A stretch of 32,081 bases of DNA from Catajapyx aquilonaris (Eukaryota): NCBI GenBank assembly GCA_000934665.2, contig JYFJ02004447.1, positions 1-32,081 of the forward strand, written 5' to 3'. Below the pieces are notes generated by a model. That model was not told the DNA's origin. It saw nothing but the letters and a program-made list of their open reading frames with translations, and ran no database searches. Below are positions 13,796 to 27,855 of this stretch, one piece after another; position 1 is the first letter of the stretch; each line of letters starts with the position of its first letter. Both the position numbers and the translations under genes were made by a program.

Positions 13796-14840
13796 AAATA
13801 ATAAACTCTTTCGTAAAACCTTCAAACTCCCTAGCCAATGAAACTGACACGCAACATGACGTCAATTCTGACCATGTCCTCGAACCATGCCCTACCACAA
13901 GGCGCATCTATGAATACATTATTAAATATTAAGTTATACTTTTTATATTGCGTTTTCAAGAAGGGTTGCTGTAAACCAGTTTTCCCTCTTCAGTTTCAGG
14001 GTCTGAGTTTTCTCAACACCACGAAGCTGCAAAAGACGATGCGACTTCTCGCGTATTCCCCACCTGCGTAATGCCACTGCTATACCACTTAATTATTACA
14101 TAACATGTAACTATATGAAAATGATGTAATGAGCCCCTATGACATAAGACAATTCAGTTTCAGAAATCCCGCAAAGTTAATTCTACGTCAAAGATCAAAT
14201 GATACGCATAAACATTCAAAAAAATGGGACTTATTCCTTAAGTACCTCCTACTATGTTCATGACTTATGAGGTGCTTTGTTTAAATAGCTATTCTTGCGT
14301 CACAATTTTGCCTTTTGCATGTTGATCAGTTTTTGTCTTACATCACTGGACATTTCAGGTCTTATACTGATGCTGCGATGGTCATGTGACGCATATATCA
14401 ACGGGTTACAACAAAAAACAGGTTATTTTCCAGAAATATTAATGTCCTCGTGTTAAACATAATTTTTCTGTAAGCAACAATTTATGGACGTGACTCCAAG
14501 TAGATTTCAGCTGGAGTAACAGTGTGCCCAATATGGATTCAGTGACCTCGTGCGTCCTTGTCTTGAGTGCTGAGTAAGAGATCAATCTTCCTGCACTGCA
14601 TTGGAATGTCGGTTCACTGGGATTACTTGATGTGGAAAAGGACTGTGTGCTGGGCACCTTGAGTGAGCTCCATGGGGAATCAGATTTATCACTTGTTCCC
14701 TGACGTTTTGCAGGTGATACATGAATCAGCGTCGTCGTTGATAGTGGCAACATTGCCCTGTGTTGGCTTGAGTAACTTAGCAATAGAGAAAGTGTAGTTC
14801 AAAGCGTGTCAACAACCGGCAAAATCAAGAGTAGTACAGC

Positions 14841-16065
14841 ATGGCTTGTTCTGTTAAATTGCACAGTGCAAGTGAGGTAGGATCAAGGGTGAAATACATC
14901 AGAGATGACAAACACTTAGAAGAGCTGCACCATAAGTACTTGTGCACCAGAGACCCGAATGACAAAATAGGCAACGAAGTCTTGATGGAATATGTGATAA
15001 GAACTGTACGTCCAAATGCACATTAGAAAGGTGTAATAATATTGTTACCAGCATGTTTCTCTTGTTCTTTCTGTCTGGGCAAAAAAAGAGGAAATCACAA
15101 AGTGCACCAGATGGCAAACGAAGCTACGGCTTGCATGCTGAACAGGAACGTCACAGTGCTCTTCATCCAAAAGAGCGGAGAAAGATGATTCGCAAGGAAA
15201 GGAAAGAATTGGTGAGTATCTTAATGTCCCGTGATTTTTTAGCTGAGGATTGTGCAGAAAATGAATCTTCTTCTGCATGAAAAAGAGTCAAGTATTAAAG
15301 TAATATTTGCAAGTATAACAGGTCAGATTTTTCATTCCCATTGCCAGTCAGCAGTGCTGCTACTGGTTTTAGTTAGTAATCTCTGTAAAATTAACGTGAT
15401 TCAGGCTTGACACTTTAACTTGCTGTTATTGATTCCAGAATAGGAGGCTTGGTCCTGGCTACTACACGGTGGAGCGATGGCCACCCACCCCACCACCACG
15501 TCGCCTCACTCGTCAGGAAATGGCAAATCTGAGAGAAAATGGTGTTCAGGAGAAGCCTAAACCCAAGTCTGTGTCCAAGATGTTCATCTTCAAAAAACCA
15601 AAGCCTGCTAAAAAGAAGCCAGTGTCCAAATGTCAAAAAAAGGTCAGATGTCTTTTTTCTGACCCAGTTCATGTCACATTTGAGCTGGGGGATTGTGCAG
15701 AAAATTAATATTCTTCTGCATGAAAAGAGGAGTCTTAAATATGTGCAGTCTGGCAATCCCCATACTTCAGTACCATAATTTCTAACAGAACAGACTTCTT
15801 TCAGCTTCAGCAACCTCCTTCGCCCTTGTGGTTCATGCCGGTTGGATACCAGTGCACTACATACTTAGCTGACTACGTGGAACCCACGCCTGAGCCTGAA
15901 CAGGCCAAGTGTCCTATTGACATAAACTACCTGAGGAACTACAAGAAAATGGCAAAAGAGTGGACATATTCTCCCATCCCTGACACCCCCAAATCTCAGG
16001 AAAAAACAAAGATCCCATTTCACCTTAGAAAGGGTGGAGAGACCAAGTGGTACATATACATTTAA
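14841..16065 (+). CDS. Uncharacterised 250-aa basic protein, candidate ciliary/sperm microtubule-associated protein; join(14841..15005,15089..15211,15439..15642,15805..16065)
   Basis: Four ORF-track fragments join into one open frame through three phase-0 GT-AG introns. Donors are ACT|GTACGT, TTG|GTGAGT and AAG|GTCAGA. Acceptors are AAG|AGG after a pyrimidine tract, TTCCAG|AAT, and TTTCAG|CTT with a CTAAC branch point at 15782. The protein contains LGPGYY (15448-15465) and TTYLADY (15856-15876). Confidence 0.75.
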
Positions 16066-17388
16066 ACAAGTGCACTTTGCACTCTGCAACACAAACACAG
16101 CTAGGCCTGTAAATACTCAGAGCAGGGCCTATTATTTCCGTACCTGATTGCTCAATCAGTAGAGCATAAGGTTGGGGATTCTGTTTCAGGCAAAGGGTTG
16201 ATAATTATTATTTTAAAATAATGCAAAAGGCCAAAAAAGGATCTCAGTATACAGGAACAGCTCAAGAAACTTGTACAAGGATGCAATATATTTTTTATTG
16301 AAAGACAGTCATATCTTTTTTTTTTTTAAAAAAAAAGCACAAGAACATGTTACTCCACTTTTCAATAATGCAGACCCAAAAATGCTTTTCAAATGAATAT
16401 TTTGTTTCTCTTCTTTGGGATCAAGGTACTAGTCTTTTCGTATCATGTCTTTTGTTTTTTGTTAAGAACTCGAGTGTGATACATTGCAGCAAGGCTTTAC
16501 ACAGCTAAATCTCACACGAGTAGGGCAATGCAAATGGCACATTATGACTTGACATCCCTAACAATCCCCATTCCCATTCTGCAACTGTGGGAATATAAGT
16601 TCCACATGCTTTAAAAAACTGTAAAAATGTCCTTACCCACACAATGTACAAAACATGTAAAAGTAACAAAAGACTGAGCAATTAATATAAGTAAAAAATA
16701 TCAACCTAAAATAAAATAACACTGGTGCATCTCACATGAGGCCTCTGGATAACCGTCAGAGATTATGAAATTTTATTGCTCCGTCAGTTTTACTCCTAAC
16801 TCGCACCATTCTATTTGGAGGGGGAACATTATTCGAATATTCAAGGTTTTGCTGGAATTAGGCATTTTGTTGCTGCATAAACACATTCACTTGCACTGCA
16901 TTCATTCCTGCATTACTGGTATGTCTTGTTGACATATCCATCTTCAAGACTGTTAATCACATCCTACACCATGTGAATTCTCAGAGTGACTTTTTATTCT
17001 TTGCTCAATGGTACTTCAGGGGCCCATACATAGAAAGAAGTATGATGTGACACACATTTAGTGTCACTCTTATTTTCGTGTGTTTGCTGTCTTCTTGTGT
17101 TGAAAGAGAACATCAACGCAACATAATATTCAAAGTGGACGTCAACCATTTACAGACTACATCACCTACACAACAGCATAACCAGGGACGACAATGTCGA
17201 CACTGCTTAGAACATCTAGCAGATACTCTCTTCCCCTCCCCTCTTCACCTTTTGTGCGTCTGATCAGGGTTCCATTACAGTCATTTGAGATGACAAGGAA
17301 TGCAACATAATTATTGTGATTCTTTTGTTATCGCTGGCTTCCCCTTCCATTAGGGATAAGCAATTATGTAAATTAACTAAAGACTATA

Positions 17389-17643
17389 AGGGCGACACGG
17401 TGGCGGAGTGGTTAGCACCACAGCCTTCCACCTCTAAGGTCCCGAGTTCGATCCCCGGGAGGATACTTATGTGGATCGAGTTTCGATGGGTTCTCTCCGT
17501 GTTCACGTGGGTTTTCTCGGGGTTCTCCCATTTCCTCCAGCAATCAAAATCCATCACACGCAGGTAATGATTAAAGTCGGTTCACGAAAAGAAGATCCCC
17601 TAAGAGGCCCAAGGCCTGTCACGGGGTATCCATTATGATTAAA
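17389..17643 (+). mobile_element. Apparently full-length tRNA-derived SINE with a V-SINE/Meta-type central domain
   Basis: A box TGGCGGAGTGG and B box GAGTTCGATCCC, followed by GGGTTTTCTCGGGGTTCTCCCATTTCCTCC and an A/T-rich end. Flanked by a near-perfect TSD: TAAAGACTATA (17378-17388) and TAAAGACTGTA (17644-17654). Confidence 0.8.
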
Positions 17644-21939: not shown

Positions 21940-22395
21940 TAGTCATGTTTTTAATTAAATGATCAAAACAAAACACATTTGTACAAGAGCACATCTCATA
22001 AACGGCAAGTTCCTGCATTGCAGGCATGTATCATTTGGACTGCTACTCGAGTCGAAGCAGAATTCGGAAGGCGTTTGGAACGCATCAGGCCTCTCTTCTA
22101 AATAGCCAGCTTTGTAAAATGCGTACTTAATGAAGTTAACAAACCGAGGAGCCAAAAACTGAAAATGAGTGAGTGCCTGCAGGAGAAGAAAGTTCTCATG
22201 TTGTCAGATTGCATAGTCAGGGCCAATATACAAAGACAAATCAGTTACATACTTCACAAAATTTTTGTATGGGTGGAAGAAATACATATCTAGGGGCTGC
22301 AGTCGCTGCACCAACCCGGTGCACTTGGGTGGCAAGTAGCACAATAATGTTTCCATCTGGTGGAACTTTTTGCTCTATTGCAGCATTATTTGTAA

Positions 22396-23750
22396 TAGTC
22401 CGGACGTTAAGGGACGAATAATGGGTCAACCGTGCATTTAGTGAAAAAAGCATGAAATTTGGTACAAATGTCCCTGAGAGCATACTCTTCAAATTCAGAT
22501 ATGGCGCCACGCCCGTTTTCGCCCAGGAGGCGGGTTGGCTACACTGAAGCGAGTGACAAGTCTTTTTCTGAGCGAACTATGCTTCCTAGGCGGATATGTG
22601 CCAAACAAATGTTGTGGGGAAACATGTATCCTACAAAAAGTATATAGTAACCTTTCCACGTACGGTCCGTATTTTCGGAGCTACAGCGACTTGAACCAAA
22701 TTAAGGGACGAAAAAAAAGGCAACCGTGCATTGGTGAAATTTTGTAGGAATATCCCTGGGACCATACTCCTCCAATCCAGATATGGCGCCACGGCCGTTT
22801 TCGCCCAGGTGGCCCGTAATTGCGGGTTGGCTACCTTGAAGCCAGTTAAAGGTCTTTTCTGAGCGAACTATGCTTCTCAGGAGGAAAGGTGCCAAACAAA
22901 GGTTGTACAGAAACATGTACTCTACAAAAAGTATGAAGTGCCTTTTCCACTTAGAGTCCTTATTTTCGTAGCTACAGCAACTTTAAAATGACTTCTCACT
23001 CTCTGAAGGGTAGCCAACCCGCAATTACGGGCCTCCTGGGCGAAAACGGGGGTGGCGCCACATCTGAATTGGAAGAGTATGGTCTCAGGGACATTCTTAC
23101 CAAATTTCATGCATTCATCACCAAAGTGCATGGTTGACCCTTAATTCCCTTTATTCCATTACTATGGGTTCAAGTCACTGTAGCTCTGAAAATAAGAACT
23201 CTACGTGGAAAAGGTACTTATACATTTTTGTAGAACACATGTTTCTGTACAACCTTTGATTGGCACATTTCCTCCTGAGAAGCATAGTTCGCTCAGAAAA
23301 AGACTTTTCACTCTCTGAAGGGTAGCCAACCGGCAATTACGGGCCACCTGGGCGAAAACGGCCGTGGGGCCACATCTGGATTGGAAGAGTATGGTCTCAG
23401 GGACATTCCTACCAAATTTCACCAATTCACGGTAGACTTTTTTTTCGTCCCTTAATTTGGTTCAAGTCGCCGTAGCTCCGAAAATACGGTCCGTACGTGG
23501 AAAGGTTACTATATACTTTTTGTAGCATACATGTTTCCCCACAACATTTGTTTGGCACATATCCGCCTAGGAAGCATAGTTCGCTCAGAAAAAGACTTGT
23601 CACTCGCTTCAGGTTAGCCAACCCGCCTCCTGGGCGAAAACGGGCGTGGCGCCATATCTGAATTTGAAGAGTATGCTCTCAGGGACATTTGTACCAAATT
23701 TCATGCTTTTTTCACCAAATGCACGGTTGAATCCCTTAACGTCTGGACTA
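22396..23750. mobile_element. Fold-back non-autonomous DNA transposon (Academ-like termini) built from ~290-bp modules
   Basis: Termini TAGTCCGGACGTTAAGGGA ... TCCCTTAACGTCTGGACTA with a 3-bp TSD TAA (22393-95, 23751-53). Two forward modules (start 22407 and 22701) face one partial and two complete reverse modules. The outer modules are ~98% identical. The superfamily assignment rests on termini and TSD only. Confidence 0.85.
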
Positions 23751-25643: not shown

Positions 25644-25816
25644 TAATGCTCTTGAAGGGACTGCCCAAACGTACCGTTATAAGTGGGAATTCATTATATG
25701 TGGGAAAAGTGATTTAATTCATACTTTTCTCAGGAAATAAATGCCTTCACTGTTGTTATCTATGTGGATGATCATACAAGTAAACCAAGTTAACATTTAT
25801 CTGACCTGCCCACGTA

Positions 25817-27855
25817 CAGTGCTGGACAAATTAGCCATCGCTGAATGTTTTTTTTCCGTCGGCGACGGCGCTGCGTTACCTGGCAACCCCATCCGGCGGG
25901 CCAATTCAAACATCGGCACATGGAGAGTGCTTCCATTGTTGCCGCTGTTTACAAATCGAGTGAGTGACGCGGACGACCCAGCGACGGGTCTCTTCTGCCT
26001 GCTTACACATCAGTAGCAAGGGATACGCAGGAGAAAACGGGAAAATAATGATGTTAGAAGCAAACCACGTTGGGAAGATCCTGGACTCAAAGAGAGGTTT
26101 TCGTCCACAGCACACGAAATACAATATTCCACCCCTGAGGAGGGGGTGTCAATTAAGATCAGGGGTGTGCTCATTGAAAGTGCGTCAACTGACGGATTCT
26201 TTTGGTTTTTGTCTTTATTCTGCATACTTCGACACCTCTAAGACGAACGGAGACCATGCCCCGTATGTCAGACACCACGTCAGTCTCGTAATTTGTCCCC
26301 AAAGACGTCATATCTCAAAATGGCTTCTGTCATGCCGCCTACGGCATAACAAGGACTTAATTACGATATTAAGTGGCATTTAATTACACACTTAATAACC
26401 CTAAAATTATTACAGTTTATTGAAAACACGCGTCTAAATTAACCTAGAGAATGGGCTAGGCAGCACGGAATCTATAAAGCAGTAGACTCCCTGGCGCCAG
26501 TAATCTATACAAAAAGAGCCATTAGAGTCCAAGCGCAGTGGAAGGGATAAGAAACTTACAGCATCAATATGATACACTCATTTCGGGATGCAAGAATCAG
26601 ATTAATACAGTTGTGAAAATACAGGACCCCACCCCAAACCGGGCACTATAAAAGCAGGTCCGAGTCATAGAATCAAACAGAAAGAGAGACACAGAGACAG
26701 AGAAAATCAGAGAAGCAGCAGACGCAGATCAGACGCAAGTCAGGCAGTAATCAGGTAAGCCAGCCATGTTGCAAAATTTCCAGTTGCATTTATTTTACTT
26801 TTCGTGCAACCATAGGTTGAAGTGTAATGTGCATGATTATGGCATACGGATGTAAAAGTATATGTAGTCATTCCATTTAGTAATGAGCAGAATTGTAGAC
26901 GTTGTTGTTGATGTTATAATATGTGGAAAAGAAGTATTATTGGACTTGTGAACTATGTATGTATGTATGAAGCTTATTATGTGTGTAATAGTGAAATGTA
27001 ACGTGATGATATAACACAGAGCCTTACGTGGCTGCATTAAATAGGTTATTTGAAGTCATTCCCCGACATTATTTATTTCCGCTGATACCCGACGCAAATA
27101 CCTCTACCTAACTTAAGTTCGAACCCGTACCTGCGTTGGTTCGACACTTCCGCTGCTCCGCATATACGAGTAAGTGTCGTTCGCGTCATATTCACGCCAG
27201 GAAGAGATACACGGCGAACGCTTGTTGCAGGTGTTCATATTATTGTGTCCAACCCCTGTACGTGTCATGTTAGTCATGTATCTCTTCCTGGTGTGAATAT
27301 GACATGATGAACGACAAGTACTCGTATAAATATGCGGAACAGCGGAAGTCATTTTGAGATATGACGTCTTTGGGGACAAATTACGAGACTGACGTGGTGT
27401 CTGACATACGGGGCATGGTCTCCATTCGTCTTAGAGGTGTCGAAGTACGCAGAATAAAGACAAAAACCAAAAGAATCCGTCAGTTGATGCACTTTCAATG
27501 AGCACACCCCTGATCTTAATTGACACCCCCTCCTCAGGGGTGGAATATTGTATTTCGTGTGCTGTGGACGAAAACCTCTCTTTGAGTCCAGGATCTTCCC
27601 AACGTGGTTTGCTTCTAACATCATTATTTTCCCGTTTTCTCCTGCGTATCCCTTGCTACTGATGTGTAAGCAGGCAGAAGAGACCCGTCGCTGGGTCGTC
27701 TGCGCCACTCACTCGATTTGTAAACAGCGGCAACAATGGAAGCACTCTCCATGTGCCGATGTTTGAATTGGCCCGCCGGACGGGGTTGCCAGGTAACGCA
27801 GCGCCGTCGCCGACGGAAAAAAAACATTCAGCGACGGCTAATTTGTCCAGCACTG
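25817..27855. mobile_element. Palindromic Tc1-like MITE (~1216 bp without its LTR insert; arms ~570 bp)
   Basis: TA-CAGTG...CACTG-TA termini. 25817-26322 and 27350-27855 are 506-bp inverted repeats with 7 mismatches by hand comparison. The arm continues after the LTR (27147-27213 versus 27277-27348). Confidence 0.92.
26328..27146 (+). mobile_element. Solo LTR (819 bp), Gypsy-type 4-bp TSD
   Basis: Starts TGTC and ends GACA, flanked by the duplicated CTTC (26324-27 and 27147-50) that is single in the opposite MITE arm. Contains TATAAAAG at 26647 and ATTAAA at 27036. Confidence 0.85.

Follow-up and report, generated by a model that had tools for sequence, protein, structure and literature searches.

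What is encoded at positions 14841–16065 of the window, and does its product belong to cilia or sperm tails, as a preliminary description proposed from two short peptide motifs? The window comprises all of contig C2442 (JYFJ02004447.1; 32,081 bp) from the 285.6-Mb assembly of the animal Catajapyx aquilonaris. It carries an ELOVL elongase gene at ∼1.8–2.9 kb and, on the minus strand and reaching down to 18812, a gene for the Ror kinase with Fz, kringle and kinase domains; the gene studied here is encoded on the plus strand, so that its tail faces that of Ror. Four exons joined across three phase-0 GT..AG introns give a stop-free frame of 250 aa that contains both of the motifs first quoted, NRRLGPGYYTV and YQCTTYLADY, just as had been described. 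Exon 1 (14841..15005, 55 codons) opens with an ATG in A-3/G+4 context and aligns with exon 1 of a paralogue on contig C20 as far as a shared donor. It is followed by a predicted intron of 83 nt (15006..15088), exon 2 (15089..15211, 41 codons, with the family motif YG...ERH.AL.P..R...I...R.EL), a predicted intron of 227 nt, exon 3 (15439..15642, 68 codons), a predicted intron of 162 nt and exon 4 (15805..16065, 86 codons plus stop), all on the plus strand, and the first AATAAA 3′ of the stop (16710..16715, plus strand) is a candidate polyadenylation signal. Exon 3 is a symmetric phase-0/0 cassette with a PG motif first and a Pro/Lys-rich stretch after it. The protein is rich in Lys, Arg and Pro (K+R 21%, Pro 10%, pI 9.85), and because its best 19-residue hydropathy is only 0.43 it should have no transmembrane segment, again as first noted; none of the four window exons matched any Pfam family. 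Because the four exons recur in the paralogues on C7697 and C20, with identical phases and donors that match, the gene model is more than chance, and at the level of sequence the four-exon gene is confirmed as real.

The remaining DNA of the window offers some separate observations. Two pairs of near-identical ORF translations (25741-26383 / 27349-27766 and 22241-22747 / 23201-23678) mark duplicated DNA upstream of Ror, probably repeats, and a tRNA-like GC-rich stretch at 17390-17570, also present in the locus of the C1630 gene described below (L053), is probably a SINE-type repeat. Within the gene itself, a 37-nt element occurs on the plus strand in intron 2 (15247..15283) and, 95% identical, in intron 3 (15690..15726), each copy starting 35–47 nt past the donor; its 19-nt core recurs in intron 3 of the C7697 copy in opposite orientation (L014 1555-1573), and the element may be small and mobile, may reflect gene conversion or may act in splicing.

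A DNA search of the genome with the window gene reached one further place, on C7697, where four collinear phase-0 exons encode 247 aa, identical to the window protein at 74 of 213 aligned positions (z = 16 against 1,000 shuffles); taken exon by exon, exons 2–4 were each significant and exon 1 was not (P = 0.19). A 19-base upstream pattern common to these two loci matched the genome seven times at no more than one mismatch, with no match for the reversed control, and five of the seven matches precede family exons (window, C7697, C4883, C1171 and C2135). No family exons were present at the other two, C33 and C972, and none at C2018 and C199, which had come up as weak protein matches. Protein queries added an intact four-exon gene of 407 aa on C20, whose exon 1 is the most like that of the window, and a genome search with PF07004 added exons 3–4 on a 1,268-base contig (C14109) together with a distant gene on C1630. 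The family as defined here therefore comprises eight loci including the window, which is a lower bound. Complete intact copies number three (window, C7697 and C20); in C4883 exon 3 is short and exon 4 was not found, in C2135 exons 1–2 are not recognisable and exon 4 contains an insertion, and in C1171 the first exon is long, at ∼410 codons with internal repeats, and two exon-3 units are degenerate. Profiles built without the window copy recovered its exons 2, 3 and 4 from 2,952 six-frame ORFs at E values of 1e-8, 2e-7 and 2e-7. The gene had been called an orphan, which holds outside this genome, where we found nothing related, but not inside it, where seven related loci exist. These comparisons show that the window gene belongs to an old, dispersed family whose small basic proteins diverge fast and which has so far been met in this genome alone.

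In the multiple alignment, pairs that include the window copy show 27–32% identity, a pS of 0.61–0.79 and a pN of 0.46–0.51. In 9 of 10 pairs conservation was lowest at third codon positions, in a test that is biased by protein-guided alignment, and omega among the copies ranged from 0.30 to 1.01, values that are unreliable at such divergence; because synonymous sites are near saturation, we claim no positive selection. The frames of the three full-length copies nevertheless remain open at near-saturated synonymous sites, and therefore show that the window gene is protein-coding. The last ∼45 nt of intron 2 (window 15395-15438) can also be aligned across copies whose proteins are only ∼30% identical, which suggests a constrained branch or acceptor region. 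In C1171 (L024, G000:C1171:48500-56421) and C2135 (L023, G000:C2135:9500-19400) the exon-3 cassette of 180–216 nt is tandemly duplicated with its own acceptor, and the duplicates are without the PG motif. All five modelled members are basic (pI 9.5–10.1, K+R 18–22%, D+E 10–14%) and have no transmembrane segment. Such a composition would also suit a testis protein outside the axoneme, namely a basic protein of the spermatid nucleus or of an accessory structure, with Lys/Arg/Pro-rich parts that bind DNA or RNA, and the Lys/Pro-rich run in exon 3 of the window copy and the rapid divergence and expansion of the family are consistent with it. We nevertheless consider a protein of this kind improbable, given that the residues conserved among the copies form aromatic, Gly and Pro motifs and not basic runs, that no copy but that of the window has the Lys-rich run, three others having Y[Q/K]WYR.PP in its place, and that this content of acidic residues is too high for a protamine-like protein.

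One feature sets the window copy apart from its relatives. In four of four aligned paralogues a TAG directly follows the pyrimidine tract of intron 1, and the window has CTG TCT there, so that the ancestral acceptor near 15071-15076 lacks its AG. The junction at 15089 uses the next AG (15087-15088), 12–15 nt further on, which is in frame and is a weak acceptor (AAAAAAAG). By computation, retention of intron 1 would bring translation to a stop after 61 aa, and skipping of exon 2 would keep the frame open to give 209 aa. The missing AG may mean that the acceptor has shifted or that the copy has begun to decay, or it may be allelic or an error of assembly. The family may be functional and the window copy itself decaying or poorly spliced: besides the lost AG and the truncation that a retained intron would cause, the Y.WYR.PP motif has gone from this copy, and the loci on C2135 and C4883 look broken or truncated. 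Against such decay, the replacement acceptor preserves the frame, all four exons are stop-free despite ∼30% identity to the paralogues, both of the upstream blocks described below are retained, and the change in the AG could also be an assembly error or an allele; we consider decay quite unlikely.

The first of the two motifs, LGPGYY (15448-15465), stands near the start of exon 3 and is followed by RWP (15475-15483; together 15448..15483, plus strand). It had been likened to the SHIPPO repeat, and the family bears this out in part: GPGxY is present in five of seven aligned exon-3 copies, but the window has L for the first P, and the full PGPGxY is found in two of the seven only (C14109 and C1630). 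C1171 and C2135 have further exon-3-like units that lack the motif and are not among the seven rows. Invariant in all seven rows are the G, the Y four places on (G-x-x-x-Y) and RWP, and the departures from GPGxY are GAGYY in the intact C7697 copy and GPSRY in C2135. When the window protein was shuffled 20,000 times, GPGxY arose in 0.24% of cases. The two PGPGxY rows matched PF07004 (E = 0.00098 and 0.033), and the other five, the window row among them, did not; genome-wide, two of 14 PF07004 matches are family-type exons, and exon 3 of the window is not one of the 14. Against the 20-bit cut-off, C1630 scores 19.8 bits (20.6 with its neighbours) and C14109 17 bits, with no score for the window. 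The C1630 gene (L053 5372-5845, minus strand), which thus scores at the cut-off, has an exon that opens with LDHPGPGYYNIKRWP in the family register and an RFX-type half-site ∼185 nt 5′ of its candidate ATG; it is a possible outgroup or progenitor of the family.

Structures show that outer-wedge proteins bind microtubules through P-G-P-G-x-Y, and likewise through P-G-P-x-Y, and in Tetrahymena doublets STPG1A and ODF3L repeat it with ∼40-residue spacers (both from part of PMC10105768). Because each of the five modelled members has at most one GPGxY and no repeats spaced by ∼40 residues (8 nm), and because likeness to the true ODF3 of the same genome is confined to seven columns (probability 1%), the family, judged by its sequence, is not a member of the ODF3/STPG group, and it may still work like a PG-motif protein. 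Exon-3 profiles matched no ciliary chain in the PDB, although CIMAP1/ODF3 chains are present there. True ODF3 genes exist separately in this genome, the one on C531 matching ODF3 of PDB 8snb at E = 1e-34. Several multi-repeat ODF3-like genes were seen altogether (C40, C296, C531, C8164, C9191 and C13897; L041-L051), two of them ∼10 kb apart on C40 and at least one with a perfect X-box.

The second motif, TTYLADY (15856..15876, plus strand; residue 182), lies in exon 4 and fits the minimal Mn signature [TS]-[TS]-X4-[YF] (as given in part of PMC10973386) exactly; a match of this kind is also contained in 17% of shuffles. Its resemblance to the Mn motif does not survive comparison with the paralogues, the test of conservation that had been set beforehand: it is private to the window, one of five copies, and is absent from the site in C7697, C20, C14109 and C1171. 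Across the five exon-4 rows the same site reads GYKGxYLNE or GFKGKYLNE in three and GYKLQFLTE in one, the family consensus being GYKGxYLNE, and none of the other four modelled proteins matches the minimal signature anywhere. What the copies do conserve in exon 4 is PL...P.GY and a helix, YL..Y.K.A..W. This aromatic helix (YLRNYKKMAKEW, 15928..15963, plus strand) is the best-predicted part of the exon, as helix 40–51 with a block pLDDT of 82, in an AlphaFold2 model from a six-row alignment that otherwise consists of short helices, three in all, and loops (mean pLDDT 64.8, pTM 0.26). The version first put forward, in which an axonemal protein employs a SHIPPO motif together with a luminal Mn motif, could draw on the exact fit of TTYLADY, on a short modelled helix at exon-4 residues 19–23 and on Atlas feature neighbours of exon 4 that include CFAP68, TEX37, SPAG8 and CFAP107 at 0.85–0.86. 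These Atlas scores, however, fall below the lead threshold of 0.9, with low recognition (1907) and the three best neighbours unnamed, and Pfam found no Mn family in any of six exon-4 rows. Because the Mn-like motif fails among the paralogues and is matched so often by chance, there is no support for a protein that combines the two types of motif, and we consider it the least probable of the readings discussed here.

In six upstream regions TGGCAACATTG is the sole long invariant run, with 11 consecutive invariant columns in six of six. It belongs to block A (14737..14755, plus strand), the upstream block with the highest conservation and the one behind the seven genome matches given above. Block A, 104 nt 5′ of the ATG, is a near-palindromic X-box-like site that reads GTTGCC-ACT-ATCAAC on the minus strand, one mismatch from RTNRCC N1-3 RGYAAC, the strictest Drosophila X-box consensus (PMC2375033, in part). 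Block B (14772..14784, plus strand) is a second RFX-type half-site, AGCAAT in the window and AGCAAC in four of six copies; it takes the form CT(C/T)AGCAAC ∼25 nt downstream of block A in four of the six regions and is absent in C2135. With C2135 excluded, as no ATG was assigned to it, the block A site is within one mismatch of the strict consensus in four of five promoters, the C20 promoter retaining half-sites only, and block B matches the degenerate consensus perfectly in one of the five (C1171). Because an X-box at one mismatch or less also occurs in 38 of 581 background windows (6.5%), a single such site is weak. In the prediction of RFX targets it is conservation of the site, and not its presence, that is predictive (70% versus 23%; PMC2375033, same part); the conservation of block A is among paralogues, which are non-independent samples. 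In the mouse, RFX2 acts through start-proximal X-boxes to drive genes of spermiogenesis (from part of PMC4498915), and an ODF3-like gene on C40, taken as an internal control, has a perfect X-box ∼60 nt before its first ATG, a distance comparable to that of block A. The idea of a role in cilia or sperm receives modest, though independent, support from the X-box-like element.

Other factors could bind GCAAC, and blocks A and B could sit within a 5′ UTR rather than in the promoter. A donor-like GTAAGC at 14471 and, at 14714, the acceptor-like TTTTGCAG could delimit an intron in the 5′ UTR. A minus-strand ORF at 14439-14798 (119 codons, Ser/Thr-rich) overlaps the upstream blocks, with its ATG inside block A; it lies in single-copy DNA, its frame, judged by eye, is not preserved in the paralogues, and it is probably due to chance. 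The protein might have a function unrelated to microtubules, for example as a fast-evolving adaptor, with GPGxY..RWP as a binding motif that does no more than resemble a PG repeat and the upstream block serving as the site of another factor or as an RNA element of the 5′ UTR. Its single motif with the first Pro in two of seven copies, the invariant RWP outside the published PG pattern, the lack of a ciliary match in the PDB, the background rate of the X-box and the acceptor-like sequence, which could put block A inside the transcript, all agree with such a function. We consider it unlikely, though the strongest of the competing readings, as two predictions of the ciliary idea were borne out independently, by the PF07004 matches of paralogues and by the RFX-type element.

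Searches beyond this genome gave little, and these blanks are weak because the libraries are mostly microbial and the queries were single exons. Exon 4 of the window had 13 candidates among longer proteins, none at E ≤ 10; the exon-3 alignment had 3,493, none at E ≤ 1; and the C1630 exon had three, none at E ≤ 10. In the Atlas the C1630 exon reached 0.90 to unnamed clusters, one of which has PF07004 in 19% of its members, a lead only. An exon-4 profile run against 1.84 billion representatives gave two matches (E = 1e-5 and 6.5e-4), summed over nine and five stretches of long repeat proteins and unrelated by inspection. Likeness to a PAN2 linker (PDB match, E = 0.45) was set down to chance, since exon 4 of the window gave P = 0.02–0.04 against the PAN2 linker of its own genome, five paralogue rows gave P = 0.42–0.79 and the family profile had no match. 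A ryanodine-receptor repeat match (E = 0.012) came from two stretches, neither passing alone; like the MYB3/DnaJ matches (E = 0.35–0.75), it rested on one short helix and was rejected. Likeness of P.GYKG to a PYG repeat was also rejected, PGY.G being absent from the five proteins and no such Pfam family turning up. In a literature search that covered few subscription papers, no published description of the family was found.

These comparisons show that the family retains two features, an RFX-type X-box-like element ∼100 nt 5′ of the ATG and, opening a cassette exon, a single PG-type motif (GPG[Y/H]Y..RWP). Our main reading, to which we give a probability of roughly one half, is that the window gene encodes a ciliary or sperm-tail protein under RFX-type control, whose one PG motif would bind the outer wall of microtubules. 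Expression of the genes would begin as part of the programme of ciliogenesis, with spermatocytes or spermatids as the most likely site and ciliated sensory neurons as a possible one. Their product would be an extended, mostly non-globular protein whose PG motif docks in an outer-wall groove of axonemal or accessory microtubules, while the basic Pro/Lys-rich stretch would touch the acidic tubulin tails and the conserved helices of exons 2 and 4 would attach to a partner or to the next copy along; TTYLADY, the Mn-like motif, would have no family-wide role. More tentatively, and with the odds rather against it, the family may be an undescribed, lineage-specific group of outer-wall microtubule proteins with a single PG motif, derived from a PG-repeat ancestor (C1630 keeps PGPGYY in the same exon register), now in about eight dispersed copies with one shared RFX-type promoter, varying by duplication of the phase-0 cassette and together forming some part of the sperm tail that is peculiar to the lineage, for example a decoration of accessory tubules or outer fibres.

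Lineage-specific microtubule-binding proteins of sperm tails escape homology searches, and their naming by cryo-EM has covered mainly mammals, sea urchin and ciliates. If the ciliary reading is true, a family without detectable outside relatives, traced through five residues of motif and a promoter block that its members share, would contribute candidates of arthropod type, and it would be an example of a PG-repeat gene pared down to a single motif before it expanded. As a probe for family members the upstream block outperformed the protein, and the approach can be reused for such orphans. Should the ciliary reading fail, an unannotated gene family of eight loci still remains.

Several known systems invite comparison. 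Like the RFX/X-box ciliary promoters of Drosophila dRFX and mouse RFX2, the family has a near-palindromic site and a second half-site at no more than ∼110 nt from the ATG, and its block A, a putative site, differs from the strict RFX consensus by one mismatch. With the Mn-repeat MIPs (SAXO1/2, MAP6, TEX37/SPMIP9, CFAP68, CFAP107 and SPAG8) the window copy shares one minimal-signature match and a weak Atlas likeness; it differs from them in having one unit only, without an NWE motif or a Pfam match and unconserved in the paralogues. The layout of CIMAP2 and CIMAP3, with few PG motifs, may resemble that of exons 2–3. Both those proteins and the family are short, and single exons and exon profiles of the family gave no match to them in the PDB or the databases, whose coverage of these two chains may be incomplete. 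CIMAP2 (LEXM) and CIMAP3 (PIFO) are short proteins of the outer doublet surface, CIMAP2 being sperm-only (PMC11779644, in part), and sperm have additional outer-surface proteins, such as CIMAP2 (parts of PMC11779644 and PMC13406575). ODF3/CIMAP1, Tetrahymena STPG1A/STPG2 and ODF3L (PF07004) are, like the family, small, basic, Pro-rich and non-globular and carry (P)GPGxY. Unlike the family with its one motif, the PG-repeat proteins have 5–12 motifs ∼40 residues apart (in the part of PMC10105768 cited above), and in the family the motif is followed by the invariant RWP and accompanied by family-specific helices in exons 2 and 4.
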